A stretch of DNA of 64,000 bases from Candidatus Omnitrophota bacterium (GTDB taxonomy: Bacteria; Omnitrophota; Gorgyraeia; Zapsychrales; JAHFFX01), in contig JAHFFW010000006.1 in NCBI GenBank assembly GCA_023247725.1, forward strand, positions 11,210-75,209, written 5' to 3'. This document shows, piece by piece, positions 31,372 through 46,788 of this stretch. Below the pieces are notes generated by a model. The model made no database searches and had not been told where the DNA came from. It saw only the letters and a list, made by a program, of their open reading frames with translations. The position numbers and the translations under genes are program-made. How positions within the stretch are numbered: the first letter of the stretch is position 1; every line of letters starts with the position of its first letter.

Positions 31372-31388
31372 CGCGGATTGAATCCGCG
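31372..31388. promoter_or_regulatory. Perfect 8-1-8 palindrome CGCGGATT-G-AATCCGCG ~90-105 bp upstream of the glnA start. Candidate operator
   Basis: Read directly. Flanked by further GCGGATT/CCGCG copies. Confidence 0.35.
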
Positions 31389-31552
31389 ACCATCCGCTGG
31401 CTATCGGCGATGATCCGCGTTAAATCTGTCTTGTGAAAAATACTCGCACATCACGTTAAAGATTAAAACCCTTTAAAAACAAATTTTCAGGAACCCAATT
31501 GAATTTTTGGGACGAATTTCATTGCCTTGAGAACTTTGATCTTCAAAGAGGC

Positions 31553-31589
31553 TGCGCGGGCTTTTTTTGCAAACAAAAAAAGCCCGCGC
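31553..31589. repeat. Perfect palindrome GCGCGGGC-T7-GCAAAC-A7-GCCCGCGC (15-bp stem) 19 nt downstream of the glnK stop
   Basis: Read directly. The U-tract lies inside the stem rather than after it, so this is not a canonical intrinsic terminator in either direction. Confidence 0.5.
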
Positions 31590-31607
31590 CTCCCAAACTT
31601 CCTGAAC

Positions 31608-31949
31608 CTACCCAATCGCCAAAGGACCCTCGTCGCCAGTTCTGATCCGGATGCAGCGCGGAAGATCCACAACGAAAATTTTTCCGTCACCAATTTTTCC
31701 GGTACGGGCACCCTTAATGACGGCTTTGATCGTCCTATCGACGAAATCTTCGTTCACGGCAATATCGATTCGAATCTTGCGCAGGAGGTTTCCCGTTTCC
31801 TTGCTTCCGCGATAAAATTCATCCACGCCCTTTTGGCGGCCGTGCCCCAAACATTCGCTGACGGTAATCAGATTCACATCCTGCTCATAAAGTGCTTTTT
31901 TGACTTCCTCCAACCGGTGCGGTTGGATAATGGCCGTAATCAATTTCAT
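31608..31949 (-). CDS. glnK: Nitrogen regulatory protein P-II
   Basis: 112-aa P-II with T-loop RGSKETG-like region and C-terminal GDGKIFV. Immediately downstream of amtB, SD AAGGAGA. Confidence 0.85.
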   Translation of the reverse strand: MKLITAIIQPHRLEEVKKALYEQDVNLITVSECLGHGRQKGVDEFYRGSKETGNLLRKIRIDIAVNEDFVDRTIKAVIKGARTGKIGDGKIFVVDLPRCIRIRTGDEGPLAIG

Positions 31950-31981
31950 CGGAGTTCTCCTTAAATAAAATGTTCGTCAAA

Positions 31982-33226: not shown

Positions 33227-34046
33227 GTCCGTTCTCCTTAAGTTTGATCTTCCCTAATAATATAATGAGAATAAAACCAAGAACAACAACCGGTGTTCTC
33301 CCCCTGCCGGTAGGCTCTTGGACGCCATTGCCCAAAAAAAAATTCCCCCAACAGCCTAGACGACGGCCATTGGAGGACTTCTGTGCCCTACCTAATTCCT
33401 CGAATTCCTATCACCTTGTTGCCTCAAATTTTTTGCTCGAGGGTAAAATCGAAGACGCCAATGCCTTCAACTTTTGCCCAAGTATAATAATGCGCCTTGG
33501 ACTTGTCAAGAAAATTTTCTAACGCTGACAAAGCCGAAAACATTCGCTGACAAATTTTCTTATGCGTGAATAAATTTGGAACAAAACAGACAAAAATCAA
33601 AAAACAGGATCCCGAGACTAAAGCCGATGGCAAGGCGTTCCAAACTTTTGGCCCAGGCATCGGAGTGTTCATTAGGATTGGTCATCGCCTCTATCCTCCT
33701 TACTCGTTGGTATAACAAAAAAGCCCAGCCCCAGTGTCACCCGGCGACTGAGCGTCTGCGCTTTTTTTATTTTCTAAACCCGAAGATTTAAAAAATAAAC
33801 CCCACCGAAAGCGATCCCTGCTCTCCAATGGGGCGTCATTGCCCAAAACAAAAACTCTCTAACGGAATTTCCATTAGAGAGCCACGTTGCTCTTTACTTC
33901 CAGATGAATACTTCTTGATCTGGACTCCAAGGCCTCACTGTCTTGGATGAAAGGAAGTATATCGGCTGGCTCACGCGTTGTCAAGTTTTTTGTTCCTTTA
34001 AATCGGGAGCCACCTGTGACCGCTTAACCTGGTCACAAGACACCTG

Positions 34047-34121
34047 AAAAAAAACGAGCGGCCCTCCCTTGACCCCGTTCAAAAAACAAACGCAAGCCAA
34101 GGAGGGAGAACGGGGCCGCTC
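34047..34121 (-). terminator. Rho-independent terminator 24 nt downstream of the MOSC gene (end of the nitrate-reductase operon)
   Basis: Minus-strand GAGCGGCC...GGCCGCUC GC-rich stem with alternative inner pairings, followed by U8. Confidence 0.5.
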
Positions 34122-34144
34122 TGAACGTGGTCCATTATCTAAAT

Positions 34145-34651
34145 TCATAAAGCATTCTGCGCTATCTCCATCGGGTGAGTGCGAGATTCGGAAGAATAAA
34201 CTTCCATCGACTCTCCCGAGCTTAAAATCCCTTCTTTTAAAACTCGGGCATAGTATCCGCATCGACCAACGATGGCTTCCTTAAGACGCGGATGAATGGA
34301 ATCGAGCACGTAACAGGGTCTTCGCTCTTTGGTTAATTCCAAAATGACTCCGCCGGTAAACTTTAAAACCATTCCCGGTGACATTTTCTGGACATGCAAG
34401 TCTTTGACGGTCAGATTTTCTCCAATCGTGCCAATGCCGACGGGAAATCCCTCCCGTTTCAACTCTGCCAGCAGTTCCCAGTCCTGAAGGCAAATGGCCT
34501 GCTCCGTTCGACGATGTTTTTCATGATGGTGTCCGTCGCCTTGCAATCCTTGACGAAAAATAAAAATCTCACCCATCTGCGGGCGCTTTGGAATCCCACC
34601 GGTAGAGATGCAAATCGCAACCACGGATGGTAACGTCTCTGAAATCGGCAT
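34145..34651 (-). CDS. MOSC-domain protein (YiiM/YcbX-like molybdenum cofactor sulfurase C-terminal domain)
   Basis: Conserved MOSC core GENLTV...RPCYVLD with the invariant Cys. ATG at 34651 with AAAGGA SD. The start overlaps the nitrate reductase stop by ~17 nt. Confidence 0.65.
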   Translation of the reverse strand: MPISETLPSVVAICISTGGIPKRPQMGEIFIFRQGLQGDGHHHEKHRRTEQAICLQDWELLAELKREGFPVGIGTIGENLTVKDLHVQKMSPGMVLKFTGGVILELTKERRPCYVLDSIHPRLKEAIVGRCGYYARVLKEGILSSGESMEVYSSESRTHPMEIAQNAL

Positions 34652-34664
34652 CAAAATCCTTTCT

Positions 34665-36881
34665 TCAATCATGCGGCAAGCGGGTGACATTGGCGGCGCA
34701 ATACTTATACGAGGGCTGCCGTGAATAGGGATCAAACGCGGCAAAGGTCAAACGGTTGGTTTCCGGATAGTGCATGGGCATAAACAGCTCTCCCGGCTTT
34801 ACCGTCGGAGTCACAACGGCTTTTGCCTTGACCATTCCTCTGAGACTTGAGACATGGACCCACTGCCCTGGTTCAATTTTAAGCCGGCCGGCATCTTGAG
34901 GATTGATTTCAACGTAGGCTTCTTTCGGATAGAGCTTGCGCAGCACGGCCGATTTTCCGGTGCGGGTCTGGGTATGCCACTGGACCGACGTCCCGCGGCC
35001 GGTTAAAAGGACAAAGGGATAAAATTTGTCGGGCGGCTCCGGGACCGACCGGATGTCTTCAAAGAGGAATCTGGCTTTGCCGTCGGGATGATAAAATTTT
35101 CCATCTGCAAACAATCGGCGTTCACTATTTTGATGCAGGTTGAGGGCTTCGGCGGTCATCGACTCTGGAAACGGCCATTGGATTCCGCCAGATTCTTCGA
35201 TCATCTGATAATCCCTGATTCCACTGATATCGGCCGGCGTTTGCCTTGAAATTTTTTTGAGAATTTGAAACACGGCCTCGGGTGAAGACCAATCGGTGAA
35301 CATCTCGGCGCAGCCCCAGTATTGCGCAATCAATTTGAAAATATAAAAATCTGCAAGGGCGACTCCCGGGGCCGCGGCCACTTTTCGAAAAAGCCCCAGG
35401 CGTCGTTCGGAATTGATCACGGTCCCTTCTTTTTCTCCCCAGCCCGCCGCCGGCAAAACCAGATCGGCCAATTGCGCCATTTCTGTCGTCGCATACATAT
35501 CTTGCACGACGAGGAAATCCAACTGGCTGATGACTTCCCGGAAATCGTGCTGATTGATCCAGGAATGAGCCGGGTTCGTGGCAATGACCCAGAGCCCTTT
35601 GATCTTGTGGACGGGGATTTGTTCCAAGATTTGATCGTAGGACAGGCTGTTCTGGGCGGGAATACAGTCGGGATTGATCTTAAGGATTTCCGCAATCTTG
35701 TGTCGGTGTTCAGGATTAAGAAAATCATAGCCGCCCAGAAGGCTGGTGGTATTGCTGAAAAGCCGCGAACCCATGGCATTGCACTGGCCGGTGATGGAAT
35801 TGGCCCCGGTTCCCGGCCGGCCGATGTTGCCGGTTAAAAGCGCCAGATTAATAATGGCCTGGGCCAGGCGCACGCCTTCATGACTTTGATTGACACCCAT
35901 GGTCCACCAGAACGATACCCGTTGACCGCAATGAATCAGGTCAGCCAATTCCTCAATTTCTTTGATCGCCAAACCTGTGGCGGCGCTCACCAATTCCAGC
36001 GGAAACTGGCGAACATGGTCGGTAAATTCGGAAAAGCCATTCGTGTGCCGCTCGACAAAAATCTGGTTGATCCATCCGTTGGCGATAAAAATACGGGCCA
36101 ATCCATAAAACAGCGAGAGATCCGATTTAGGCGCGACGGTATAGTGATGCGTGGCCGCCATGGCTGTTTCTGTTTTCCGCGGATCAATCACGACGATTTT
36201 GGGGTGATGGCGGTTCATGAGAACCCGCTGCCACATGATGGGATGCGCGATGCAGGGATTCGCGCCAACAAAAACCAAAACATCGGATTCTTCGAAATCT
36301 TTGTAGGTAAATGGCGGGGCATCGAATCCAAAGGATTGCTTATAAGCGACGGCGGCGGTGGCCATACATTGACGCGTATTGGCGTCACCGTGCACCATTC
36401 CCATGCCGAATTTAGCCAACGCGCCCAAGAGCGCCATTTCTTCCGTGCAGAATTGTCCCGTACTTAAAAAAGCAACCCTCTCGGCCCCGTATTTGCGTTG
36501 GATGTCTTTAAATCTTCCGACGAAGATTTTGAGTGCGGTATCCCAATCGACGGCTACCAATTTTCCAAAACGATCTTTGAGCAAAGGGGTTTTGGCACGA
36601 TCGGGAGCCGTGAGCGGCGTGAGCGCCTCCCAGCCTTTGGGGCAGGCCTCGCCCAGATTCACCGGATGATGACGGTTCGGCGTCAAATTGACAGCTTCAC
36701 GGTTGCGCAGGTGCACGGTCAGACTGCAGCCCGTCGAGCAATAACCGCAGATGAGATTGACCGCCGCCTGTGGCATGAGCCTTTTAGGCAACTGGCCCAA
36801 TCCTAACACCGAAGGTTCCAATATCAGCTCTTGAGTCAGATCGCCGTTGGTTTTGTAAAAAATATCGCGGAGTTTATCCAT
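34665..36881 (-). CDS. Assimilatory nitrate reductase catalytic subunit, NarB/NasA-type molybdopterin oxidoreductase, cytoplasmic (no Tat signal)
   Basis: N-terminal 4Fe-4S motif [10 protein letters not shown], Mo-bisMGD domains, 738 aa, C-terminal tail typical of assimilatory enzymes. Nitrogen-assimilation context. Confidence 0.75.
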
Positions 36882-36888
36882 ATTTTGT

Positions 36889-37010
36889 TCCGAGGGACGA
36901 TCGACGACCGCTCGGCCAATAGTACGGTGGTCTCGCTAGGATGAAGGACGAGAAAATGTCTTCGTCCCTCGTCCTAGCGAACGAAGTGAGCGGTCATCCT
37001 TCATCCCTCT
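36889..37010. repeat. GGGACG-core self-complementary repeat (AGGATGARGGACGA type) filling the narB / FeS-NrfD intercistronic gap
   Basis: Nested inverted repeats GACCGCTC...GAGCGGTC and GCTAGGA-TGAA-GGACGAG...CTCGTCC-TAGC. A related copy lies at 56511-56625. Confidence 0.6.
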
Positions 37011-38633
37011 TTATAAAACGTCTTTCTCCAAGCCACCACCTGGCATCTTGAGCGGAACGACCGCCCGGAAAAAAAGAAACCTTTCCAAAGATTCCCCGAT
37101 CAAAGAGAAACCTAAGATCGCTGCAACCAAAGCCCACGGGACTTCGGTCGTCGAAGAATTCAATTTTGCCGCCAACACCAAGGGCAAAATGACACCACCG
37201 AGCAATCCAAGAATAAAACGGGCATTCGTCACCCGGCGCAGAGGTCGGCTCATTAAAAAGGCCGTCTTCTTGAGCGCCGTCCATTCTTTTTCCCGTAAAT
37301 GCCGCAAAAAAATTCCCTCGGTGAGCAATTTGCCTAACACCAACGCGGCCATCAACCGACAGACGAAAATTTCCCCAACCTTCGATGATCCGCCAAAAAA
37401 TAAAAACGCCGGAAGGATCGCCGCCAATCCCAAAATCCCCGTCGTCAAAAAGAATTTCACCATCGTCTGCGGATGGTCCCAAAAAGGCCGCCGCGTGACT
37501 TTATAAACCATGATCGAACACCCAATCCCGAATAGTCCTAAAATCGCCGTTATGATCGCCAAGATTTGATTCGTCAAACCTCCCTCATGTTTCCAGGAAG
37601 CCAAAGCATAAAATGCCGTCAAAATAGCAAAAAGACCAAAAGCGATGATTTCACGGCTGAGCCACGAATGCCTTAAACCCAAAACCGCCCGAAACGCCAA
37701 GTGCGGCCGACCCAAATGAAAGATACTGACCGCCATCGCCAAGATTCCGGCGCAAAGCGCCACCAGGGCTTGTACGGCTGGTGCTAACGGATGCGAAATG
37801 ATATCCGAATAGCGGTTCAAAAATAGACCTCCCGCAAATGCCCCGACGGATAACTGAGTCAAGACCAGCATGGCCACCAACGGCCAATGGCAGTGCTCGG
37901 GCTGGAGCGTATAGGAATCGACGGCCATTGTGCCGGAAGGAAATTTCTTTTGCGTCTCGTAGCGGGTTGTCGGTAACGTATAATGCGAATCCGGCGCGTC
38001 GGGGATATTGACAAAATCCGTCGGATGTTCGTAAACGGCGGCGGTCTCAACCAGCGTGATGCGAATCGCACCGTTGGGACAGGCGCGGGCGCAGGCCGGA
38101 GCCTCGCCGACATTTAAACGGCTGATGCACATGTCGCATTTGTGCACAATGCCTTTCTTTCTGTTGTACTTGGGAACATCGTAAGCACAAGTGAAGGTGC
38201 AGTACTGGCACCCGATGCATTGGTCCTCGAGATGCCGGACGACACCACTGTCTTTCTCTTTGACGTACGCATCAACCGGACAACCATTAAGGCATGCCGG
38301 GTCCAGGCAATGATGACAGGCACTCGTCACGTGCTGGATCACCGAATCGCCGTTACGCCCTCCATATAACAATCCGACCGTACGCCAGGTTTCATCTTCG
38401 GGCAATCCGTTTTCATTGTGGCAGGCGGTCACACAGGCCTTGCAGCCGGTGCAGCGATCGAGATCGACGCTAAAGGCGTATTGCTGACCCGGGCCGGGCG
38501 CGCTTTTGGGGATGAGCTCTTCATAAAAATTCATTGCCGGAATCTGTTTTAAGTCGTGCTTCATGGCAAATGCTTCAACGGCAGTCAATTCCTGCTGTTG
38601 TTGCAAATAGGTTTCAATGAGATCTGGAGACAC
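37011..38633 (-). CDS. Fusion protein: 4x[4Fe-4S] ferredoxin domain (DmsB/PsrB/NrfC-like) + NrfD/PsrC-type polytopic membrane quinol-interaction domain, with a ~60-aa unique N-terminal extension
   Basis: Four Cys clusters (CTGCKACVTAC, CHHCLDPAC, CIGCQYCTFTC, CDMCISRL...CARACP), then ~8 TM helices of NrfD type. No signal or Tat motif. GTG start at ~38633 with AAAGGAGA SD 6 nt upstream. The ORF-track TTG at 38687 is not preferred. Confidence 0.7.
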   Translation of the reverse strand: MSPDLIETYLQQQQELTAVEAFAMKHDLKQIPAMNFYEELIPKSAPGPGQQYAFSVDLDRCTGCKACVTACHNENGLPEDETWRTVGLLYGGRNGDSVIQHVTSACHHCLDPACLNGCPVDAYVKEKDSGVVRHLEDQCIGCQYCTFTCAYDVPKYNRKKGIVHKCDMCISRLNVGEAPACARACPNGAIRITLVETAAVYEHPTDFVNIPDAPDSHYTLPTTRYETQKKFPSGTMAVDSYTLQPEHCHWPLVAMLVLTQLSVGAFAGGLFLNRYSDIISHPLAPAVQALVALCAGILAMAVSIFHLGRPHLAFRAVLGLRHSWLSREIIAFGLFAILTAFYALASWKHEGGLTNQILAIITAILGLFGIGCSIMVYKVTRRPFWDHPQTMVKFFLTTGILGLAAILPAFLFFGGSSKVGEIFVCRLMAALVLGKLLTEGIFLRHLREKEWTALKKTAFLMSRPLRRVTNARFILGLLGGVILPLVLAAKLNSSTTEVPWALVAAILGFSLIGESLERFLFFRAVVPLKMPGGGLEKDVL

Positions 38634-38765
38634 GTGATTCTCCTTTAATAACCAATTTCCAGTAGACCAATGACCAAACAAATCCAAATGTTCAAATCAC
38701 CAAAGTTCAAAACGGCTTGGCCATTTGGATTTTGGATTTTTGTGATTTGGTCATTCTTCTATAAA

Positions 38766-40106
38766 TCAAAGGCTGAAAGTGGTCTGCACATACACAAAGT
38801 CCGCATCGTCATTGGCACCGGTTTCGGCCAGATAGTCCCCCGAGAAGAAATGCGAATATCCAACCTGGATAGCGGTGGAATTATTCAATTTGTAATCGGC
38901 CGTCAAGTCGATTTCGTCGCCAAGATGATCGTCCACAGCGGTCGTGGCCGTGCGCACGACCGATCGGGCGGCGTTATAATAAGAATCCTTGACGGTATCA
39001 AGATAAAACCGATGCCACTCGGCCTGAAGCTTCAATTTTTTATGGGGTTTGGCGCTCAGCTGATAATGAAACTGGTTGGTATTCTGCAGACTCACAAAGT
39101 CGATGAACCCATAAAAGAGGTGATTCGTCGGATAAAGATTGTCGAAGGTCTTGAGTTCATTGTCGGTGGGATCATCGTCCCCGGAACCGTAGGTGAATTC
39201 AAACGCCGCTCGAGGCTGCCATGGCAACCGGAAGGTGTAGCCAACAATCGCCACGGCCATACCCGCATTCACATCTTTACCGAGAAAATCGCCAAACTGC
39301 CGGGCTGCTTCCACTTCATAATCCCAACCGCTTTTGAATGCCTTCTTGACGCGGCCACCTACTGTGTAATCATCCACCTGCCCCGAGCCGCTGGGCCCGA
39401 AGGAAATATTCTTATCGGTTTCCCGGCGGAATAAATAATGTTCCAAAAGTGTCTCGCCGAAGGCCTTGGCCGTCACGTCATATCCCCAAAGCCGTTCCCG
39501 CGATGATCCATCGTACAAATCATCAAATTCCCGCGGACTTTTGATGGAAGTTTTATCGCCTCCGAAGAGATCGACCTGGAGATGATAAGGAACGAAATGA
39601 AAACCCATCCGGCCCCCGTCAAAGGTCTGGGCCACATTCGACCAATTGAATCCGCCGATCAACCGCTGGGCGCCAAACGAAAATTCCTGACGTCCCGGCC
39701 TAATGGAAAGCTTATTCATTTGCAGCGGTTCAAAAATAATATCGTCGGTATAATCCACATATAGCTGGCGGATATCGAAGTAATTTTCAAAGAGCGCCTT
39801 ATTGACCGTATTCGATTCCCAGATTCGGGCGTCCTGACCCTGAATAAAGAATCCCAGTTCTTTGACAGGATTGTATTTGAGATTGAGGCGCGTTCGTTCC
39901 AGATGAAAGGCATCTTCATCATCGCGGGAATCGTTAAAATCAAAATTGTTCCGGTATTCCAGGCGGTAGCGGAATTCCAAATCCGTTTTCAGCTGGCTCG
40001 GCAGATATTTATTAATGACATCCCCGGCGAAAACCTCCCCGCCCAATTCCAAAAAAGCCAGGATAAACAAAAACACAGCGCTGCCCTGTCCCCAAATTTC
40101 TCGCAT
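38766..40106 (-). CDS. Outer-membrane beta-barrel of the alginate-export (AlgE-like) porin family
   Basis: Signal peptide, alternating amphipathic beta-strands rich in Y/F/G, family-level similarity to the alginate_exp domain. SD AAAGGAG. Confidence 0.6.
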   Translation of the reverse strand: MREIWGQGSAVFLFILAFLELGGEVFAGDVINKYLPSQLKTDLEFRYRLEYRNNFDFNDSRDDEDAFHLERTRLNLKYNPVKELGFFIQGQDARIWESNTVNKALFENYFDIRQLYVDYTDDIIFEPLQMNKLSIRPGRQEFSFGAQRLIGGFNWSNVAQTFDGGRMGFHFVPYHLQVDLFGGDKTSIKSPREFDDLYDGSSRERLWGYDVTAKAFGETLLEHYLFRRETDKNISFGPSGSGQVDDYTVGGRVKKAFKSGWDYEVEAARQFGDFLGKDVNAGMAVAIVGYTFRLPWQPRAAFEFTYGSGDDDPTDNELKTFDNLYPTNHLFYGFIDFVSLQNTNQFHYQLSAKPHKKLKLQAEWHRFYLDTVKDSYYNAARSVVRTATTAVDDHLGDEIDLTADYKLNNSTAIQVGYSHFFSGDYLAETGANDDADFVYVQTTFSL

Positions 40107-40229
40107 TGAAAGCTCCTTTCTCTCATAGACTTCATGCGTAAAATCTCCGGGAACATCGGCGCTCCCTCCAGCGTCTTTTCCTTCTACGGTTTAAGAACGA
40201 CTGGCCGGCCTTCATCGGTTGATTTCATA

Positions 40230-40562
40230 TCAACCCACGGCTGCCTTTGCACTCGTTTCTATCATGACGGTTTGAGAAACTTCTTTTGATTTCTTGTTCC
40301 TTCCTTCCAAAAAATTGTTGACCGGTCGCTTGCGGATAAACCTGCCGGACCCCCCAGCATGACATTTTCCATCGCCGTCAACCAGGGAAGCAGACTGGGC
40401 GCCTGGAAAACCACGCCGCGGTCCGGGCGCGCTTTTGGGGATCAGTTCCTCATAGAATCCCATCGCTTGGATCTGTTTGAAATCCTTCTTCATGGCGAAG
40501 ACTTCCACCGCCGAGAGATCCTGATACTTTTGCAGGTATTCATTGATGAGGTTCTGCGACAT
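40230..40562 (-). pseudogene. Degenerate duplicate of the 5' end of the FeS-NrfD gene (remnant or pseudogene)
   Basis: aa 5-45 match the N-terminal extension of 37011-38633 ([44 protein letters not shown] vs [44 protein letters not shown]). DNA 40420-40560 aligns with 38490-38640. The frame is lost after PGP, so the Cys motifs are lost. No SD. Confidence 0.5.
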
Positions 40563-41784
40563 ATGCTATCCCGGCTTCCGTTTTAAATGCGGTTTGCTTT
40601 GAAACAATCCTGGGAAAACTCCATCCCCTTTGAACAAACTGCAGCGTTATTAAAGCCCCGAGGCCTGTGCAGGCAAAAACCAGAAAGCCAACCCCGTAGG
40701 AACCAGCCGCATCCTTAAAGAATCCAAGGACCGTTGGAAGAATAAATCCTCCCAGCCCCCCCGCGGCTCCTACAATGCCGGTAATAATGCCAATCTCCTT
40801 CCGGAATCTTAAAGGGACCAGCTGAAAAACCGAACCATTGCCCATACCCAAACAGCTCATTCCAGCAAAAATAAGAAGCGTCACTAATCCAATGGGAGGC
40901 AGGCGACTGATGCCGATCATGAAGACCGCAATGGCGCTAAAAAGGATGGAGAGCATGCGGATGCCGCCAAACTTATCGGCAAGATAGCCTCCGACGGGTC
41001 TTAAGAAACTTCCGGCAGCCACACACAGCGCGGTGAAATTACCCGCCGCTACTTTGCTCAAGCCGTACTGGTCATGAAAAAAGATTCCTAAAAAACTTGC
41101 GAGGCCCACAAACCCTCCGAACGTAATGCTGTAAAAAAAACAGAACCAGAACGTATCCGCTTCCCGCAAGACGGAAAAATAATCCGCGAGTCGTTTGGGC
41201 GCCGGCTGCTCCGGGCTCTCTTTCGCGAATATCATATAAATAGCCAACGTTAAAAGAACAGGAATGATGGCCAGGCCGAATATATTGTGCCAGCCGTAGA
41301 CCTCCGCCAGCCGCGGCGCAAAAAGGCTGGCCAGAACCGTGCCGCTGTTTCCGGCTCCGGCGATCCCCAGGGCCATTCCCTGATGCCGGGGCGGATACCA
41401 ACGGCTCGCCAGAGGCAACGCCACGGCAAAACTTCCACCCGCAATCCCCAAGAGGAAGCCGAAAAAAATCACCTGATGAAACGACAGAGCGAAAAGCCAA
41501 ACACCTAAAAGAGGAATAAGAACAATGAGCTGGCCTAAGATCCCCGTTTTTTTGGGACCGATGTGGTCCACCAAAAGCCCCAGCGGGATTCGTACCAGCG
41601 ATCCGCCCAAAAGAGGAATGGCCGCCATAAACCCTTTCTGAGTGGCCGTAAGGCCGAAATCTTTGGCGATATAAACACCGAGGACACCCATCAGGACCCA
41701 GACCATGAAACTAATATCAAAATAGAGGAACGCCGAAAAAAGAGTGGGTGGATGACCGCTTTTGGCAAAGTCTTTTAATCGCAT
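40540..41784 (-). CDS. narK: MFS nitrate/nitrite transporter (NNP family)
   Basis: 12-TM MFS with NNP glycine-rich signatures (GFMAAIPLLGGSLVRIPLG, GAAGGLGGF). ATG at 41784 with AGGAGG SD. 10 nt downstream of nirD. Confidence 0.8.
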   Translation of the reverse strand: MRLKDFAKSGHPPTLFSAFLYFDISFMVWVLMGVLGVYIAKDFGLTATQKGFMAAIPLLGGSLVRIPLGLLVDHIGPKKTGILGQLIVLIPLLGVWLFALSFHQVIFFGFLLGIAGGSFAVALPLASRWYPPRHQGMALGIAGAGNSGTVLASLFAPRLAEVYGWHNIFGLAIIPVLLTLAIYMIFAKESPEQPAPKRLADYFSVLREADTFWFCFFYSITFGGFVGLASFLGIFFHDQYGLSKVAAGNFTALCVAAGSFLRPVGGYLADKFGGIRMLSILFSAIAVFMIGISRLPPIGLVTLLIFAGMSCLGMGNGSVFQLVPLRFRKEIGIITGIVGAAGGLGGFILPTVLGFFKDAAGSYGVGFLVFACTGLGALITLQFVQRGWSFPRIVSKQTAFKTEAGIAYVAEPHQ

Positions 41785-41811
41785 ATTAGCCTCCTCAATC
41801 AATTTCCCTTG

Positions 41812-42126
41812 TCATTTCTCCAGGATGATTTGCCCTTGTTCCTGTCGAATTTTGAAAACCGCAACGCATTCTCCGGCCTCACTCCCTTGACCGGTTTGAA
41901 AATCAAACTTATGCCCGTGCAGAGGGCACACCACCTTCCCGTCGCCAATCACCCCTTCCGACAGGGGACCCCCTCGATGGGGACAATGATTCTCGACGGC
42001 AAAAATTGTTCCGCTGCGGGAACGGAAGACCGCGATTTCCCGTCCGTGAACGACAAAACACCGGCCCTGCCCCACAGGGATTTGATCAACCGGGCCTAAA
42101 AGAACCTTTGAATTTTGACCAATCAT
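41812..42126 (-). CDS. nirD: Nitrite reductase [NAD(P)H] small subunit (Rieske-like)
   Basis: CPHRGGPL...CPLHGHKF Rieske-type motifs. ATG at 42126 immediately after the nirB stop. The longer ORF-track N-terminus would overlap nirB. Confidence 0.8.
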   Translation of the reverse strand: MIGQNSKVLLGPVDQIPVGQGRCFVVHGREIAVFRSRSGTIFAVENHCPHRGGPLSEGVIGDGKVVCPLHGHKFDFQTGQGSEAGECVAVFKIRQEQGQIILEK

Positions 42127-42130
42127 GTTT

Positions 42131-44638
42131 CTAACCGTTGTTTTCCGCTTCGTGCAAAACCTCGATGAGGCGCGGACCTTCAAATTGATGCGGATACGCC
42201 GGAAACTCCGCTTCCTGCCATGGATCCCGATAAGCCTCGACCGCTTCCGCAATCCTTTCGTCCAGCTGGGCACAAATCCCTAACGAATCCTGCACGAGGA
42301 TTCCCTTCAAGATCTCGATCCCGATCCGCTCGGCAAAGCCATAGGTTCGTTCCAGATATTTGGCATGTTCCCGGTAATACTGAATGAAGCGTCCGATATA
42401 TTTGAGAACATCGTCATGGCTGTTGACGGTGCACAAAAGATCGCCTTTGCGCACCGAACTTCCGGCGGCACCGCCGACGTAAATCTCCCATTGCCCGCCT
42501 TCGATGGCGACGGCGCCAATGTCCTTGACGTAGGCCTCCGAACAATTGCGCGGACAACCGGCGGTCGCCAGTTTCATTTTGTGCGGAGATTCAATCCCCT
42601 GAAACCGCCGTTCGATCTTCTGAGCCAGGGCGATGGAGTCCCCGACGCCGTAACGGCAGAAATCCGTTCCCACGCAACTTTTGCAGGTGCGAAAGGCCTT
42701 CGTATAGGCATGGCCGCTCGGCATTCCCAGATCTTTCCAGATCGACGGCAAATCCTCTTTCCTGACGCCCAAAAGGTCGATCCGTTGCCCGCCGGTGATT
42801 TTCACCATCTTGACTTTGTATTTCATGGCGGCCTGGGCGATCCGCATCAATTCCTCGGGACTCGTCACGCCCCCATAAATCCGCGGCACGACGGAGAAGG
42901 TGCCGTCTTTTTGGATGTTGGCGTGCACGCGGTCATTGATAAAGCGCGCGTCGCGTTCATCGACGTACTCTTTAGGCCAAATGGTTTTGAGCAAGGACGC
43001 GAGACCGACTTTGCTATCGGGGTCTTCTTTGCCGCCGGCCAATTCTTGAAAAACCGCACTGACGGATTTTAATCCGCGGCTCTTGACCTCGGCGACCAGC
43101 TGGGATTTTTCGAGCGGTATCCCGGGCACATAAAAATGTTCAGATGGATCATAGGTCACCTCGCCCAGGCAAGACTCGATCAACTGCGCAATCAGTCCCC
43201 GGCAAGAACCGCAGCCTTTGCCGGCCTTGGTCTTTTTCCCAACGGCAGCCACCGTCTTGCAGTTGGCATCGAGAATCGCGTCGGTGATTTCTTTTTTGCA
43301 AACGCCATTGCAATTGCAAATCTGGGCGTTATCGGGAAGATCGGCAACGTTGATTAAGATCGCGTTTTTTACGGATCCAAAGAATAGTTCCGAGCGTTTG
43401 CTAGGAAGCCTTTCTTCGTTTAAAAACATCTGCATCAAAAGATCGCCGCCCTGCGTGTCACCCAGGAGAATGGCGCCGTAAATCCGGTCGTCGCGGATGA
43501 TCAGTTTTTTATAAATCGCGCGGTTCGGTTCGCGGTAGGTCACGACCTCATCCGACGGCTGCCCTTGTTCTTTTTCACCAAGGGACAATAGCTCGACCCC
43601 CATGACCTTGAGCTTGGTCCCGGTCTTTGAACCGGTATAGGTGGCCTGAGGATTTTTTTCGGTGATCACATCCGCCAAGACCCTGGCCTGTTCCCAGATG
43701 GGATCGACCAGACCGTACAGCTTGCCGCGGTGCTCCGCGCATTCCCCCAAAACAAAAATGTCGGCGTCGCTCGTCCGCATTTGGTCATCGCAAACGATGC
43801 CTTTGTTGACGGCGATTCGAGAATTCTGGGCCACCTCCGTGATTGGACGAATGCCGGCACTGACGATGACCATATCTGTTTCCAGGGTTGTCCCGTCGGC
43901 AAACGAAAGGGAAGAAATCTGCCCGTCACGCGAGTGGATCTTGGCAGTTTTCGTCCCGGTCAAAACGCGCAGGCCCATCGATTCCATGGTTCTTCTCAAT
44001 AACTGTCCTGATTCCTGATCCAGTTGGGCGGCCATCAATTGAGCGGCCGCTTCGATGACGGTCACCTCGACGTTATGGGTCAATAGACCGCGGGCCGCCT
44101 CCAATCCCAGAAGACCGCCGCCGATGACCGCGGCCTTGCGGCAATCTCGCGCGTACTGCGCAATGGCAGAGCAGTCATCGATCGTTCGGAATAAAAATGT
44201 TCCCGGGGCACCGAATCCTTCCATCGGCGGGACAAAGGGCCGCGAGCCCGTAGCGATAATCACGTGATCATAGGATTCCTCGACGATATCACTTTTAGGA
44301 AGGATGTCATCGTTATGGGCATAAGGCAATTGTCCCTGAGGGACATTCACTCCTAAAACAACCCTTCGTTCGCGATCGATCTTAAAGGCCTTGATGCCGG
44401 CATGCAGATGGATGGAATTTTCTTTGTACCAGGAAAGAGGATTGAGAAAGATTTCTTGCGGCTCTTGAGTTTGGTTGAGGACATTGCTTAATAAAATCCG
44501 GTTATAATTCCCATACGGTTCGGCTCCGAACATGGAGATATCAAATCTTCCCGGCACTCGCTTGAGGATTTCCTCGACCACACGGGCTCCGGCCGTGCCA
44601 TTGCCGATCACCACCAATTTCTGCTTGAAATTTTTCAT
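42131..44638 (-). CDS. nirB: Nitrite reductase [NAD(P)H] large subunit (835 aa)
   Basis: N-terminal FAD/NAD Rossmann VVIGNGTAG, BFD-like 2Fe-2S, C-terminal sirohaem/4Fe-4S nitrite/sulfite reductase domain. SD GAGGAA. Confidence 0.9.
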   Translation of the reverse strand: MKNFKQKLVVIGNGTAGARVVEEILKRVPGRFDISMFGAEPYGNYNRILLSNVLNQTQEPQEIFLNPLSWYKENSIHLHAGIKAFKIDRERRVVLGVNVPQGQLPYAHNDDILPKSDIVEESYDHVIIATGSRPFVPPMEGFGAPGTFLFRTIDDCSAIAQYARDCRKAAVIGGGLLGLEAARGLLTHNVEVTVIEAAAQLMAAQLDQESGQLLRRTMESMGLRVLTGTKTAKIHSRDGQISSLSFADGTTLETDMVIVSAGIRPITEVAQNSRIAVNKGIVCDDQMRTSDADIFVLGECAEHRGKLYGLVDPIWEQARVLADVITEKNPQATYTGSKTGTKLKVMGVELLSLGEKEQGQPSDEVVTYREPNRAIYKKLIIRDDRIYGAILLGDTQGGDLLMQMFLNEERLPSKRSELFFGSVKNAILINVADLPDNAQICNCNGVCKKEITDAILDANCKTVAAVGKKTKAGKGCGSCRGLIAQLIESCLGEVTYDPSEHFYVPGIPLEKSQLVAEVKSRGLKSVSAVFQELAGGKEDPDSKVGLASLLKTIWPKEYVDERDARFINDRVHANIQKDGTFSVVPRIYGGVTSPEELMRIAQAAMKYKVKMVKITGGQRIDLLGVRKEDLPSIWKDLGMPSGHAYTKAFRTCKSCVGTDFCRYGVGDSIALAQKIERRFQGIESPHKMKLATAGCPRNCSEAYVKDIGAVAIEGGQWEIYVGGAAGSSVRKGDLLCTVNSHDDVLKYIGRFIQYYREHAKYLERTYGFAERIGIEILKGILVQDSLGICAQLDERIAEAVEAYRDPWQEAEFPAYPHQFEGPRLIEVLHEAENNG

Positions 44639-44648
44639 CCGCTATTCC

Positions 44649-44702
44649 TCAACAAAAGAGGCCTCACCCGCCGAGTTCTAAATCTGGTGCGGGTGAGGCC
44701 TC
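44649..44702 (-). terminator. Leader terminator/attenuator T2: 14-bp perfect stem GAGGCCUCACCCGC-N17-GCGGGUGAGGCCUC, then UUUUGUU, 11 nt before the nirB SD
   Basis: Read directly from the sequence. Confidence 0.55.
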
Positions 44703-44710
44703 ATTGCCTC
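44695..44710 (-). promoter_or_regulatory. ANTAR-type target hairpin: 5-bp stem + hexaloop GAGGC-AAUGAG-GCCUC (A1, G4) overlapping the 5' arm of T2
   Basis: Matches the published ANTAR RNA-motif geometry. The cognate GAF-ANTAR gene is adjacent. Confidence 0.45.
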
Positions 44711-44914
44711 TGGACAAAAAGAAGCTTCCTAAATGGCCCTGCTTCGCCAAATTGTCCTTCGACGTTTGCTCACGGTCCTTCGAACGGTCCTGAAGTAAGG
44801 TTGAAGGAGGTGCTGAGCGTCGTCGAAGGATCGGCTACGCAGGGTTTATCCGTCTGCCTGGGTCGAATCTTTGCCTTTTGTCTGGGAAAACCGACCTACC
44901 TAGCGGAGGCGGAT

Positions 44915-44953
44915 AAAAAAAATCCCGATGGCCATGAATTCGGCTTCATCGGG
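44915..44953 (-). terminator. Leader hairpin T1 CCCGAUG-N16-CAUCGGG followed by U8
   Basis: Read directly. Lies inside the nirB 5' leader. Confidence 0.45.
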
Positions 44954-45020
44954 CTTCTGTGTCCGTCGTTCTTCAGTGAAAAAAGATTTTTGCGACAACT
45001 CTGCCGCCAAAATCGTTTCA

Positions 45021-45048
45021 AATATAATTCAAGCGTAAATGTTTGTCA
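45021..45048 (-). promoter_or_regulatory. Sigma70-type promoter of the nirBD-narK operon (-35 TTGACA, 17 nt, -10 TATATT)
   Basis: Plus-strand TGTCAA 45043-45048 and AATATA 45021-45026. About 375-nt leader. Confidence 0.45.
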
Positions 45049-45100: not shown

Positions 45101-46330
45101 TTATTTCTTTTGCAGCTCATCCATCAGGATGATCGACTCAGCGATCTCTTTCATCGATCGGCAGGAATCCATACTTTTTTTATGAATCAATCGATAAGCG
45201 GATTCCTCCGAAAGACCATTTAAACGCATGAGGATCCCCTTGGCGCGCTCGATGAGCTTGCGGGTCGATAGCGCCTCGCGCGCCTTTAAGGCCTCTTCCA
45301 TGAGCTTGGTATTCTCGACCGCAACGGCCGCCTGGTTGGCGATCATCCGCAAAGCGGCAATCTCATCCTGACTGAAGTGATGCGGAGTTTTGGTGTAAAC
45401 ATTGATGATACCGATGGCTTTTTCTTTCACAATCATGGGGACCGAAAGCATGGAGGTCAATTCTTCCTTGACCGCGAGGTCGCGGTACATATAGCGGACT
45501 TCCTGCCGCACATCAAAAACGGTTAAAGGGATTTTGCTGCGAATGACTTCCCCACTTAAGGAATTATTGACCCGGACATTCGGCTTGCGCTTGTATTCTT
45601 CGCTCAGGCTCTGCGTTGCCTTGATCGCGAGCTCCTCGGCTTTTTCATCAAGGAGCATGATCGAGCAGATTTTGGAGTTGAGCATCTCCGCCGTCACAAC
45701 AACGATTAAATTGAGAATCTCGTCGAGATAGCGTTCGGAGGTGATCGTGTGGCTCACCTTGACCAAACTATCGAGCTGAGTGGCCTTCTTTTTGGTTTCG
45801 GCAAACAACCGCGCGTTTTCGATGACGCCGCCGACCTGTTTGGCGATGGTGTGGATGAGATTCACCATATTCGCCGGGTAGGCATGCGGTTTGCGGTGTT
45901 GAACATTGATGACTCCGATCGCCTTGCCTTGATAAATGATGGGGACAGACAAAAAAGCCTCGTAGCGATCCTCTGGCAGGACATCAAAATTCTTGAACCG
46001 CGGATCTTGATAAGCATTCTTCTTGATGGCAACCGGCTTATTCTCCTTGGCAACCCAACCGGTAATTCCCTCGCCGACCTTGAGAATCACCCGGCCGACT
46101 TCCTTTTTGTGCGGGGTTTTGGAAGCGGACAACACCAAGTTGGTCTTTTTGTCGTCGAAGAGATAGATAAAGACGGAATCGGCTTGAGTCGCGTCATTGA
46201 CAATCTTTACCACTTCCTGGAGAATCCAAGGAAGATCGAGCTCGGAGCTTGTAATATCAACGATCTTGCGCAAAATTTTAATTTCCTGTCTAGAAACATT
46301 TCCGCTTTTATTGCTCGTTGCCATGTCCAT
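45101..46330 (-). CDS. GAF-GAF-ANTAR RNA-binding antitermination regulator (NasT/NasR-like)
   Basis: Two GAF domains, then C-terminal ANTAR (LIERAKGILMRLNGLSEESAYRLIHKKSMDSCRSMKEIAESII). ATG at 46330 (MDMATS) with AAGGGG SD. The ORF-track extension would overlap the upstream gene. Confidence 0.8.
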   Translation of the reverse strand: MDMATSNKSGNVSRQEIKILRKIVDITSSELDLPWILQEVVKIVNDATQADSVFIYLFDDKKTNLVLSASKTPHKKEVGRVILKVGEGITGWVAKENKPVAIKKNAYQDPRFKNFDVLPEDRYEAFLSVPIIYQGKAIGVINVQHRKPHAYPANMVNLIHTIAKQVGGVIENARLFAETKKKATQLDSLVKVSHTITSERYLDEILNLIVVVTAEMLNSKICSIMLLDEKAEELAIKATQSLSEEYKRKPNVRVNNSLSGEVIRSKIPLTVFDVRQEVRYMYRDLAVKEELTSMLSVPMIVKEKAIGIINVYTKTPHHFSQDEIAALRMIANQAAVAVENTKLMEEALKAREALSTRKLIERAKGILMRLNGLSEESAYRLIHKKSMDSCRSMKEIAESIILMDELQKK

Positions 46331-46332
46331 CG

Positions 46333-46788
46333 TTACCCCTTGATCTTGGGAAGGCCAAACCACAATTGCCATTGAATCAGCACAAATAAAACCAAAAAGG
46401 TCAACGCCAGCATGAAACCAAAAAAAAACATCTGGGCCGCGAACCAGCTTGAGAAGCGCACAAACCACATGGACCCGATATCAGAGATAATGAAGACCGG
46501 AACCAAAACGGCCACCAGGCGCTTCATTTTTTCTGTGTAGCCGCTCAGCAAAAAGATGCCGAGCGTCATTCCCCAGACCCCAATCATCCAAAATAAATAC
46601 TTAAACGTATGCTCAGCCAATTCCGCGGTTTCGAAGGAGCCATACCCTTGCGCAATCAAGGCAACCTGCATCCTGGTATCCAACCAGATTTCCAACAAAA
46701 GCAAGAGATAATTGAGTCCCACCAAACACAGCCAAAAACTGACGAACCATCGGGCGCTGTGAGGCCATTGGCGGATATCGGTGAACAT
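46333..46788 (-). CDS. Polytopic membrane protein (4 TM) translationally coupled to the ANTAR regulator
   Basis: Strongly hydrophobic helices. Its stop lies 2 nt before the regulator's ATG. Start at ATG 46788 or TTG 46812. Confidence 0.5.
   Translation of the reverse strand: MFTDIRQWPHSARWFVSFWLCLVGLNYLLLLLEIWLDTRMQVALIAQGYGSFETAELAEHTFKYLFWMIGVWGMTLGIFLLSGYTEKMKRLVAVLVPVFIISDIGSMWFVRFSSWFAAQMFFFGFMLALTFLVLFVLIQWQLWFGLPKIKG

Follow-up and report, generated by a model that had tools for sequence, protein, structure and literature searches.

The locus lies on the minus strand of the window, which is the whole 64,000-nt stretch of DNA that was analysed. The ORF list places there the genes for a 540-aa fusion protein and a 738-aa Mo-bisPGD enzyme, followed by a MOSC gene. 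This three-gene set belongs to a cluster that also contains nirBD, narK and a porin gene and is bordered by the gene of an ANTAR regulator and, at its opposite end, by amtB-glnB-glnA. The window further encodes a type III glutamine synthetase and the quinone reducer nqrABCDEF. The features of the cluster are as follows.

~34047..34121, minus strand: intrinsic-terminator-like hairpin plus U8 (fold and sequence)
34145..34672, minus strand: MOSC-domain protein (Pfam MOSC, E 1.3e-11)
34665..36881, minus strand: predicted cytoplasmic Mo-bisPGD nitrate reductase catalytic subunit of the Nap/Nas clade, 738 aa (Pfam, signature residues, tree, no Tat motif)
36882..37010, minus strand: structured spacer of 129 nt between the fusion and reductase genes (RNA fold)
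37011..38633, minus strand: fusion protein, 540 aa, comprising an N-terminal extension, a DmsB/PsrB-type domain and a DmsC/PsrC-type anchor; proposed fused beta-gamma subunit
38766..40106, minus strand: outer-membrane beta-barrel of the Alginate_exp family (Pfam PF13372, E 1e-64)
40230..40562, minus strand: 110-aa ORF, partial copy of the fusion-gene start (DNA alignment, tblastn)
40540..41802, minus strand: NarK-family nitrate/nitrite MFS transporter (TIGR00886, E 2.7e-88; MFS_1)
41812..42126, minus strand: NirD-type Rieske small subunit of nitrite reductase (Pfam Rieske / Rieske_2)
42131..44638, minus strand: NirB, NAD(P)H-dependent sirohaem nitrite reductase large subunit (Pfam Pyr_redox_2, NIR_SIR, NIR_SIR_ferr, Fer2_BFD)
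44639..45030, minus strand: structured leader with two hairpin plus U-run elements (fold z = -7.1)
45101..46468, minus strand: GAF-GAF-ANTAR protein (Pfam GAF x2 and ANTAR)

The NirD gene probably starts with the ATG at 42126. The Alginate_exp β-barrel is a candidate nitrate/nitrite porin, and the GAF-GAF-ANTAR protein is a candidate antiterminator of the nitrate cluster. The structured leader, which matched no Rfam family, sits 3´ of a near-consensus promoter-like site (45049-45021; 11/12 matches in a promoter scan).

The maximal ORF of the fusion gene spans 37011-38687. Its real start is the GTG at 38633, located five bases 3´ of AAAGGAGA, in agreement with the GTG start and Shine-Dalgarno sequence proposed in the initial annotation, and the resulting 540-aa product is identical to database protein P0001. 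The N-terminal extension (residues 1-50) is specific to the family, kept across it and therefore probably functional. Residues ~51-245 constitute a DmsB/PsrB-type domain with four [4Fe-4S] clusters, and residues ~250-520 a predicted eight-helix quinol-binding anchor of the DmsC/PsrC type. Pfam assigns Fer4_11 to residues 120-210 (E 1.6e-19) and DmsC (PF04976) to residues 267-540 (E 1.7e-16). Four Cys4 motifs and about eight transmembrane helices had been noticed previously; hydropathy gives eight helices, and all 16 cluster cysteines (C61/64/67/71, C106/109/114/118, C139/142/145/149 and C166/169/181/185) are invariant in an alignment of 19 homologues with 50–71% identity. The anchor, initially called NrfD/PsrC-like, is indeed a membrane anchor; its match, however, is to the DmsC family and not to NrfD proper. 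The two halves share 36% identity with E. coli DmsB and 28% with DmsC, and the fusion aligns collinearly with the adjacent dmsB-dmsC and ynfG-ynfH gene pairs. Single-chain models of the fusion and the reductase are of moderate confidence (pLDDT 76 and 78), and both N-terminal extensions are poorly defined in them. The modelled fold of the fusion matches FdnH/PsrB and PsrC/ActC. In the JGI resource some homologues of the fusion are named ‘formate dehydrogenase iron-sulfur subunit’.

For E. coli DmsC, quinol oxidation is reportedly blocked when H65 is mutated, E87 reportedly matters for the binding of quinol, and a model places S62 and S82 in the site (PMC8076601). The set S62/H65/S82/E87 aligns to S303/H306/S323/E328 of the fusion, which are invariant in the 19 homologues. 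No Tat or Sec signal motif was observed in the window protein or the 19 aligned fusion proteins. Similarly, no Tat motif was found in 12 reductase orthologues, including that of the window, whereas the NapA control in the same scan was positive (SRRDLL). The loops on the FeS side carry 15.6 Lys+Arg residues on average and those across the membrane 1.9, a distribution strongly inverted relative to that of E. coli DmsC (2 vs 4). The missing export signal and this positive-inside bias place the FeS domain in the cytoplasm, which is the predicted orientation that the initial annotation had proposed. No known route would take a signal-less N-terminal FeS domain of 250 residues across the membrane. 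A Nap-like periplasmic quinol:nitrate reductase, facing the periplasm like DmsABC or PsrABC, would suit the nearest relatives of the fusion halves (DmsB/DmsC and YnfG/YnfH), which belong to periplasm-facing enzymes (PMC8076601), but the missing signals, the inverted charge distribution, the lack of an export route and the NarK importer in the cluster make this the least credible explanation of all.

The reductase contains the Pfam domains Molybdop_Fe4S4, Molybdopterin and Molydop_binding. As first described, it is a 738-aa Mo enzyme with an N-terminal cluster motif and no Tat signal. The [4Fe-4S] motif (C45-x2-C48-x3-C52...C80) is preceded by a ~44-residue clade-specific extension, which the fusion-linked orthologues share and which NasA, the Cetobacterium enzyme and FdhF lack. 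Cys172-Met173 at the Mo ligand and Thr364-Gly-Gln correspond to the residues of Nap and Nas. In contrast, formate dehydrogenases have Arg-Gly-Gln/His in place of Thr-Gly-Gln, and their catalytic His and Arg are Met and Thr here. In a neighbour-joining tree of 20 sequences, which excludes characterised cyanobacterial NarB and Bacillus NasC, all nitrate reductases, including the window enzyme, split from the formate dehydrogenases at 100% bootstrap, and the fusion-linked reductases form their own clade, also at 100%. The best structural match of the model is monomeric NapA (TM 0.84–0.87), which is consistent with a NapA-like fold. The initial assignment as a nitrate reductase rather than a formate dehydrogenase is thus upheld. 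Its ‘NarB-type’ label is imprecise, since the closest annotated relative retrieved is the Cetobacterium enzyme (44% identity), whose operon is read as clostridial NarABC-like, with cyanobacterial NarB outside the comparison; proteobacterial NasA shares 33–36% identity. Public sources name orthologues of the reductase ‘assimilatory nitrate reductase catalytic subunit’.

A quinone-linked dehydrogenase or reductase acting on formate, chlorate, selenate or an N-oxide would agree with the top NCBIfam match, a broad Fdh-alpha model (474 bits, with no equivalog cut-off reached), with PDB sequence matches that score slightly higher for formate dehydrogenases than for NapA, and with the JGI label of some fusion homologues. 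The exchange of the catalytic His and Arg for Met and Thr, the very residues that Nas and Nap carry there, the 100% placement among nitrate reductases and the nitrate/nitrite-specific gene context argue against another substrate, which we consider very improbable.

The pairing of the fusion with the reductase recurs across at least six bacterial phyla. The related genome loci were those of the closest fusion orthologues (80 loci, identity at least 45%), which span Planctomycetota, Omnitrophota, Myxococcota, Acidobacteriota, Verrucomicrobiota and Fibrobacterota. An orthologous reductase gene is located directly 3´ of the fusion gene on the same strand in 78 of them, and in the other two the contig ends before the reductase position, so that the synteny anticipated in the initial annotation extends across the relatives. 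The gap between the two genes has a median of ~32 nt, with overlap in 12 of 77 pairs, and most relatives show either overlap or a gap of at most 100 nt; 4-nt junctions occur on two independent contigs with called genes. The flanks contain a NirB homologue in ~48 loci, a NarK-type transporter in ~29 and, close to the pair, an Alginate_exp porin homologue in ~20. Fusion homologues of lower identity may have other enzymes as partners. In reference operons, too, the gene of the electron donor adjoins that of the reductase: an FAD oxidoreductase in Ralstonia, and a 4Fe-4S protein plus an FAD protein in Cetobacterium.

The reductase could alternatively be an ordinary soluble Nas fed by NirB/NirD (cf. 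NasBGC), ferredoxin or a flavoprotein, with the co-located fusion serving another purpose or partner. A Rieske NirD/NasG-like gene and NirB are present within the cluster, and a CysJ-like flavoprotein adjoins the pair in one relative (L092). In Paracoccus, NADH is described as the electron source of NasC, with NasG thought to hand the electrons on (PMC6618116). The unusual 129-nt structured spacer that parts the two genes in the window was also counted against the preferred explanation. However, the fusion gene is directly 5´ of the reductase gene in the 78 loci, including loci that lack NirB or NirD in their flanks, and the reductases linked to it branch as a clade of their own and share an N-terminal extension not seen elsewhere in the comparison. 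As far as we know, four-cluster proteins of the DmsB/PsrB type work as dedicated partners of catalytic subunits of Mo/W-bisPGD enzymes or hydrogenases, and the neighbourhood offers no other conserved candidate. A different donor is therefore improbable, and the fusion most likely feeds the reductase with electrons from membrane quinol.

The best reading is a complex of DmsABC/PsrABC design whose catalytic subunit belongs to the Nas clade. We propose, with a probability of roughly 0.7, that the fusion and the Mo enzyme together make up a quinol:nitrate oxidoreductase, anchored in the membrane and facing the cytoplasm, that gives nitrite to NirBD for nitrogen assimilation. The physical complex, quinol as the donor, the direction of electron flow and the assimilatory role are what we infer from these data; the quinone type and the lack of energy coupling are guesses. 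(Mena)quinol would bind the DmsC-type anchor near the cytoplasmic face at S303, H306, S323 and E328. Electrons would run through the fused DmsB-type domain by way of its four [4Fe-4S] clusters, reach the [4Fe-4S] cluster near the N-terminus of the reductase and continue to Mo-bisPGD, where nitrate imported by NarK would be reduced, and the nitrite would pass to NirBD. Because the cytoplasmic side would both receive the quinol protons and supply those used in nitrate reduction, the step should be electroneutral, unlike the redox loop of NarGHI. A study of the DMSO reductase family states explicitly that canonical four-cluster or anchor partners are lacking throughout the Nas/Nap clade (PMC7331816), and no earlier description of the pairing was found in the searchable literature, which is consistent with the initial suggestion of a hybrid outside the Nar, Nap and Nas paradigms.

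The same complex could act mainly in dissimilation, as a quinol-oxidising sink for nitrate ammonification with NirBD at low oxygen, besides or instead of assimilation. Quinol-linked membrane enzymes are typical of respiration, and NirBD of enterobacteria also reduces nitrite in dissimilation. Moreover, the pair has no nir or nark neighbours in one relative (L093), and nqr genes are adjacent in the window. Conversely, the cluster is flanked by the ANTAR regulator and by amtB-glnB-glnA with the type III glutamine synthetase, and with its quinol site predicted near the cytoplasmic face, the enzyme would not by itself conserve energy. Many carriers (planctomycetes, Sorangium, Vicinamibacterales) are presumably aerobic heterotrophs. 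A mainly dissimilatory role appears unlikely, and assimilatory nitrate reduction remains the preferred reading.

The ORF at 40230-40562 had been regarded as a duplicate of the N-terminal extension of the fusion. It repeats only the first ~145 nt of the fusion gene (48 codons, 71% amino-acid identity; DNA alignment); tblastn detected no homologue of the remainder, and the ORF has no Pfam or NCBIfam match. The copied part is closest to the fusion of its own genome (71%), and tblastn revealed a second copy of the fusion-gene start in no other locus. The duplication is thus real over 48 codons, and the ORF, whose remainder is unrelated, is probably a rearrangement remnant. Its use as a sign of a docking role was rejected, since the truncated remnant is found only in this genome.

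The three genes had been described as tightly packed on the minus strand. Their order and strand hold, but the 129-nt spacer parts the fusion from the reductase; it folds into a very stable nested hairpin (-72 kcal/mol, z = -8.1), and its sequence is single-copy within the window. The MOSC gene, its domain identified by Pfam, starts inside the reductase stop as originally noted, the ATG at 34672 overlapping it (ATGATTGA); a second possible start, the ATG at 34651, comes with an AAGGA of its own. Apart from the window, only L003 and L005 among the loci have a MOSC gene beside the pair, and the MOSC protein is accessory rather than a core part of the system. The previously noted terminator past the MOSC gene, a GC-rich hairpin with U8 at ~34047-34121, closes the operon.

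The fusion and reductase genes lie in a nitrate cluster on the minus strand of the window (~34.0-46.5 kb). The cluster is listed below in transcription order, followed by its flanks.

45101-46468, minus: GAF-GAF-ANTAR protein, first in transcription order
44639 onward (~390 nt), minus: structured leader of nirB, between the ANTAR gene and nirB
42131-44638, minus: nirB
41812-42126, minus: nirD
40540-41802, minus: NarK-family transporter
40230-40562, minus: 110-aa ORF
38766-40106, minus: Alginate_exp-type outer-membrane barrel (PF13372)
37011-38633, minus: FeS/anchor fusion
34665-36881, minus: Mo-bisPGD enzyme
34145-34672, minus: MOSC gene
after the MOSC gene, minus: terminator, hairpin followed by U8
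downstream of the cluster: amtB, glnB, glnA and a type III glutamine synthetase
27512-29677 and 29821-31284: GSIII and GSI, adjoining, beside glnB and amtB
47121-53142, minus: nqrABCDEF, a complete operon for the Na+-translocating NADH:quinone oxidoreductase, directly upstream of the cluster's regulator

By gene content, the reductase has an assimilatory context in the window, with NirBD, NarK, the ANTAR regulator and amtB-glnB-glnA around it. Since amtB-glnB-glnA-GSIII and nqr flank the NirBD/NarK cluster, the pair sits inside a nitrogen-assimilation island. The nqrABCDEF product is a plausible quinol source, and its adjacency to the cluster may be coincidental. Two glutamine synthetases of different types stand side by side at 27512-31284. 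The MOSC start overlaps the reductase stop and a terminator follows the MOSC gene, both as described in the initial annotation. The three genes had also been called tightly packed, which does not hold for the first junction, where a 129-nt spacer parts the fusion from the reductase.

The fusion gene starts at a GTG at position 38633, five bases 3' of AAAGGAGA, which confirms the earlier choice of a GTG with a Shine-Dalgarno sequence, and its 540-aa product is identical to one database protein. Pfam matches to Fer4_11 and DmsC (PF04976) were obtained; the best NCBIfam match is DmsB (TIGR02951), with 126 bits under a cut-off of 214. The four complete Cys4 motifs and the membrane domain of about eight helices noticed at first reading were both recovered: none of the 16 cysteines in the four groups varies across 19 aligned homologues, and hydropathy gives eight peaks for the anchor. 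This domain had been termed NrfD/PsrC-like; it is a membrane anchor, as claimed, of the DmsC family and not NrfD proper. In the AlphaFold model (pLDDT 76, pTM 0.79), the first half structurally resembles FdnH, PsrB, PcrB and ArrB, and the second half resembles PsrC and ActC. Adjacent dmsB-dmsC or ynfG-ynfH gene pairs in plasmid records align collinearly with the fusion protein, which is 36% identical to E. coli DmsB and 28% identical to E. coli DmsC. Because the domains, the model folds and the collinear alignment agree, the protein is, as judged from its sequence, a head-to-tail joining of DmsB and DmsC with ~50 extra N-terminal residues. Such a natural beta-gamma fusion could help structural work.

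The side of the membrane on which the FeS domain lies was assessed from export signals and loop charges. No Tat or Sec signal was found in the fusion (19 sequences) or in the reductase (the window and 11 orthologues, 12 in all), as the initial annotation had stated; the Tat regular expression recovered SRRDLL in the control, Paracoccus NapA. Anchor loops on the FeS side carry a mean of 15.6 Lys+Arg versus 1.9 on the opposite side, a bias of the same sign in 19 of 19 sequences, whereas the outward-facing E. coli DmsC gives 2 versus 4 in the same count. By the positive-inside rule, this bias places the FeS domain, and therefore the reductase, in the cytoplasm by prediction, with an anchor inverted relative to DmsC. 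A periplasmic orientation was rejected on the lack of an export signal together with the charge bias, and the cytoplasmic FeS domain proposed earlier stands as a prediction.

A review of NrfD-like subunits gives S62, H65, S82 and E87 as the quinone-site residues of DmsC; H65 mutants are reported to block quinol oxidation, and E87 is reported to be important for quinol binding (PMC8076601). These residues align by BLASTP to S303, H306, S323 and E328 of the fusion, which are invariant in the family (19-homologue alignment). Their positions, at the helix 2 end and within loop 2-3, which is rich in Lys and Arg, put the predicted quinol site at the cytoplasmic face.

The reductase contains the three expected Pfam domains (PF04879, PF00384 and PF01568), and its N-terminal CxxCxxxC motif, seen at first reading, is the start of a [4Fe-4S] motif formed by C45/C48/C52/C80 (Cx2Cx3C...C). 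The overall sequence scores similarly for formate dehydrogenases (FDHs) and NapA, and the catalytic residues were therefore examined. In the alignment, Met comes directly after the Mo-ligand Cys (RQCMATA), a feature shared with NapA and NasA, whereas FDHs have Sec or Cys followed by His (CH/UH) and the ForC-like enzyme has CQ. A Thr common to Nap and Nas (ITGQCNAMG) occupies the position at which FDHs have Arg (RGQ/RGH). A neighbour-joining tree (713 columns, 100 bootstraps, limited taxon sample) was built with the annotated NasA of Klebsiella, Ralstonia and Sulfitobacter, each encoded beside nirBD, and with Paracoccus NapA as references; the FDH side was represented by E. coli FdhF and two further FDH-type enzymes, and a Cetobacterium enzyme was added. 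The fusion-linked, Cetobacterium, NasA and NapA sequences were split from the FDHs in 100 of 100 bootstraps. Within this limited sample, the fusion-linked reductases form their own clade with 100% bootstrap support, to which the Cetobacterium protein is sister. A formate-dehydrogenase reading was rejected on the active-site residues and the tree; the Cys-Met and Thr-Gly-Gln signatures thus sustain the earlier assignment as a nitrate reductase. The model of the reductase (pLDDT 78) is closest to the monomeric D. desulfuricans NapA (TM 0.84-0.87), with no Nas or NarB structure among its PDB matches. Orthologues are named 'assimilatory nitrate reductase catalytic subunit' or 'nitrate reductase' in public sources, and the NCBIfam equivalogs NasA_Halo and NasC are not reached (444 versus a cut-off of 1000 and 420 versus 1100, respectively).

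Both proteins of the pair carry N-terminal extensions. The N-terminal ~50 residues in the fusion contain the motif LTAVExF...Y.ELIPK..PGPGQQYAF, which is conserved in the 19-homologue alignment. The linked reductases share a conserved extension of ~44 residues ahead of the FeS motif, DGxLTxEL...FGLGQ(V/L)PxRLxPD, which is missing from NasA, the Cetobacterium enzyme and FdhF in the alignment. Paracoccus NasC has about 5 residues before the FeS motif, compared with 44 here, and NarG has a ~50-residue tail before its first FeS motif, the first ~50 residues of NarG being proposed to bind the chaperone NarJ (PMC6618116). Modelled alone, each extension was predicted with low or middling confidence. 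They may serve in subunit docking or in binding a maturation factor. No natural three-way fusion of Mo subunit, FeS protein and anchor was found among the best 120 reductase homologues, of which the only long one is P0183, a database protein of 932 aa with a partial molybdopterin-like C-terminal tail. This protein belongs to a cluster of 98 member sequences; its tail of ~190 residues is like part of a second molybdopterin-oxidoreductase domain and could reflect either a fusion or an error in gene calling.

With one genome scanned per species, at least 579 genomes were found to encode a relative of the fusion, of which the 80 best loci were retrieved. Planctomycetota account for the majority of these 80; the rest belong to Omnitrophota, Myxococcota (among them complete Sorangium genomes), Acidobacteriota (Vicinamibacterales), Verrucomicrobiota and Fibrobacterota. 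Those closest to the window come from Planctomycetales and Omnitrophota MAGs. A reductase orthologue of 60-70% identity lies directly 3' of the fusion gene on the same strand in 78 of the 80 loci; in the other two, the contig ends before the position of the reductase. The linkage of the two genes thus extends to the relatives. The gap between them has a median of ~32 nt, and 12 of 77 complete pairs overlap; 4-nt junctions were also observed, with independent gene calls, in two further metagenomic contigs. NirB is encoded in the flanks of about 48 of the 80 loci and a NarK-type transporter in about 29.

The other neighbours vary. Among the 80 loci, a MOSC gene next to the pair is confined to the window and the two relatives nearest to it (L003 and L005), which indicates that it is accessory; speculatively, it might act in cofactor sulfuration or in detoxifying N-hydroxylated by-products. 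In L093, one of the further metagenomic contigs, a MobA-like nucleotidyltransferase (12189-12827) follows the reductase in place of MOSC. In the other, L092 (4650-8314), a NirA-type nitrite reductase (double NIR_SIR) and a CysJ-like flavodoxin/FAD/NAD protein precede the pair and replace NirBD. The proposed quinol-linked reductase thus occurs together with more than one type of nitrite reductase. Homologues of the Alginate_exp barrel, which may be an anion-selective nitrate/nitrite porin (38766-40106), occur near the pair in about 20 of the fetched loci, with 26-32% identity and 60% in the closest.

The closest sequence relatives of both fusion halves are DmsB/DmsC and YnfG/YnfH, from the E. 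coli DMSO and selenate reductases of the CISM family (complex iron-sulfur molybdoenzymes). DmsABC and YnfFGH share with the pair a Mo-bisPGD subunit with an N-terminal [4Fe-4S] cluster, a four-cluster beta subunit and a haem-free eight-helix anchor, and the S62/H65/S82/E87 quinol site is kept in the fusion anchor. In contrast to DmsABC, in which beta and gamma are separate, they form a single polypeptide here. The catalytic dimers of DmsABC and PsrABC are Tat-exported and face outward, whereas the missing Tat signal and the inverted charge bias of the anchor predict that the proposed fusion-reductase complex faces the cytoplasm. DmsA is Ser-ligated and the reductase has the Cys ligand of the Nap/Nas clade; the latter scores 114 bits with the NCBIfam dmsA_ynfE model versus 420-474 bits for Nas and Fdh models. 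The polysulfide reductase PsrABC of Thermus thermophilus (PDB 2VPW) is the best solved template for both fusion halves (TM 0.70, on target, to PsrB and 0.69 to PsrC), but it faces the periplasm, acts on another substrate and has separate subunits with a PsrA-type catalytic subunit.

The one described precedent for the orientation is SoeABC, of which SoeB and SoeC are separate proteins. This sulfite:quinone oxidoreductase of Allochromatium and Aquifex is proposed to face the cytoplasm with an NrfD/DmsC-type anchor, and His65 and Glu87 are listed at the quinone site of SoeC (PMC8076601). In both systems, the peripheral subunits are predicted to be cytoplasmic and the anchor inverted, and the pair would be the second example of an inverted NrfD/DmsC-type module. 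SoeABC oxidises sulfite and reduces quinone, whereas quinol oxidation and nitrate reduction are proposed here. Compared by description only, its catalytic subunit SoeA is of another, PsrA/PhsA-related clade; the reductase, in its nitrate context, scores 162 bits with the PhsA model versus 420-474 bits for Nas/Fdh models.

NarGHI resembles the proposed complex in being a quinol:nitrate oxidoreductase that is bound to the membrane and has its active site in the cytoplasm. NarG, at about 1200 aa, is a type II enzyme with an Asp ligand, and quinol is oxidised at the outer face by NarI, a dihaem cytochrome b, hence the proton gradient. The anchor here is instead of the haem-free DmsC type, with a predicted inner-face site. 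The narH model gives 49 bits versus a cut-off of 524; no NarG-type model is among the 25 listed reductase matches, and the type II alpha model gives 69 bits.

The catalytic subunit itself shares its main features with NasA, NasC and NarB, which are cytoplasmic, Cys-ligated Mo-bisPGD enzymes with an N-terminal [4Fe-4S] cluster, encoded beside nirBD and narK and bearing the same active-site motifs; identity to proteobacterial NasA is 33-36%. In known assimilatory nitrate reductases, which are soluble, the electrons come from NAD(P)H-flavoproteins, ferredoxin or flavodoxin. Paracoccus NasC, for example, is fed by NADH (PMC6618116). Here, by contrast, a four-cluster protein with a membrane anchor is the conserved neighbour in 78 of 80 loci and the putative donor. 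The Cetobacterium enzyme is the closest annotated relative retrieved of the Mo subunit, with 44% identity and identical active-site strings in addition to its sister position at 100% bootstrap. Its operon (Mo subunit, 4Fe-4S protein and FAD oxidoreductase) is read as clostridial NarABC-like; it differs in having soluble partners, the small 4Fe-4S protein and the FAD oxidoreductase, with no anchor and no N-terminal extension.

Taken by analogy, the complex would combine the plan of the complex iron-sulfur molybdoenzymes with the orientation suggested for SoeABC, NarGHI chemistry and a catalytic subunit of the Nas/Nap clade. It departs from DmsABC and PsrABC in having neither a Tat-exported outward orientation nor separate subunits; it also lacks an SoeA-type subunit, NarG and NarI, and the soluble donors on which Nas enzymes draw. 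Wells et al. stated that no member of the Nas/AioA/Nap/FDH clade has canonical four-cluster or anchor subunits (PMC7331816), a generalisation that the fusion-reductase pairing contradicts for the Nas/Nap clade, and a review of the NrfD family lists no member from nitrate assimilation (PMC8076601). A Nas-linked DmsBC-type partner is not described in PMC10100899, PMC4013037, PMC8808070 or PMC6618116, and no description was found in the searchable full-text literature; subscription-only papers lie outside it, and an earlier account is possible there. The pair is widespread and annotated only generically, and no experimental characterisation was found in the literature searched.

Homology and genomic context suggest a mechanism in which quinol would be oxidised at the inner face of the anchor. 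Menaquinol is the probable quinol in these phyla. Electrons would pass along the four [4Fe-4S] clusters of the fusion, reach the cluster of the reductase and from there Mo-bisPGD, with nitrate delivered by NarK and nitrite converted to ammonium by NirBD. Unlike NarGHI, the quinol-to-nitrate step should by itself build no proton gradient, because protons would be released and taken up on the same side. Homology, topology signals and synteny are in line with the initial proposal of a quinol:nitrate reductase that is a hybrid outside the Nar, Nap and Nas types. A bolder reading is a distinct, undescribed class of prokaryotic nitrate reductase beside these three, in which a Nas/Nap-clade subunit was co-opted by a fused, inverted DmsBC module, so that the respiratory quinol pool directly feeds nitrate assimilation, and which is widespread in six phyla; in its strongest version, the anchor also uses the large potential drop from quinol to nitrate to move protons, or the enzyme serves as a respiratory sink as well. 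We give this reading slightly less than an even chance (about 0.45). If the strongest version is true, metagenomic 'nasA/narB' markers would not indicate purely assimilatory, energy-neutral nitrate use. An energy-coupled or dual-purpose complex would also mean that gene surveys of the nitrogen cycle have to be read anew.

To our knowledge, for most heterotrophs outside the Proteobacteria and Cyanobacteria, the donor of electrons to assimilatory nitrate reductase is not established. For several abundant soil, freshwater and marine phyla, this type of locus points to a concrete candidate, namely the quinol pool via the fused FeS/anchor subunit. Public labels place 'assimilatory nitrate reductase' beside 'DMSO reductase anchor' or 'formate dehydrogenase FeS subunit'; the two genes thus appear as unrelated activities, and metabolic reconstructions miss their link.

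Two non-coding elements of the cluster are strongly folded, and no Rfam family matches either in a scan of 29000-47500. The 129-nt spacer (36882-37010, minus) forms a nested hairpin (-72 kcal/mol, z = -8.1) with no U-run after it, and the ribosome-binding region of the reductase lies at its 3' edge. The spacer is single-copy in the window, which rules out a dispersed repeat, and most relatives have short gaps or overlaps. It could be an element for RNA processing, stability or translation control, or an inserted palindrome. The nirB leader (~390 nt, fold z = -7.1) contains two hairpin-plus-U-run elements and is preceded by a near-consensus promoter-like site at 45049-45021. Together with the GAF-GAF-ANTAR protein, in which a GAF sensor takes the place of NIT or receiver domains, this leader looks like an ANTAR-type antitermination system for nitrate assimilation.

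The N-terminal extension of the fusion had been noticed as duplicated in the ORF at 40230-40562 and considered a docking element. A copy is present; it covers ~145 nt in common with the 5' end of the fusion gene (48 codons, 71% amino-acid identity), and after a 6-nt insertion the ORF diverges into sequence without a homologue. A functional docking module was rejected for this ORF, a truncated copy with an unrelated tail that is unique to this genome: no second copy of the fusion N-terminus is found elsewhere in the 80 loci. Its identity to the fusion of its own genome exceeds that to any other genome's fusion, and it overlaps the narK stop. In relatives, narK or the porin gene directly adjoins the fusion, and the ORF is, from its sequence, probably debris of the rearrangement by which the porin gene came to lie between narK and the fusion.
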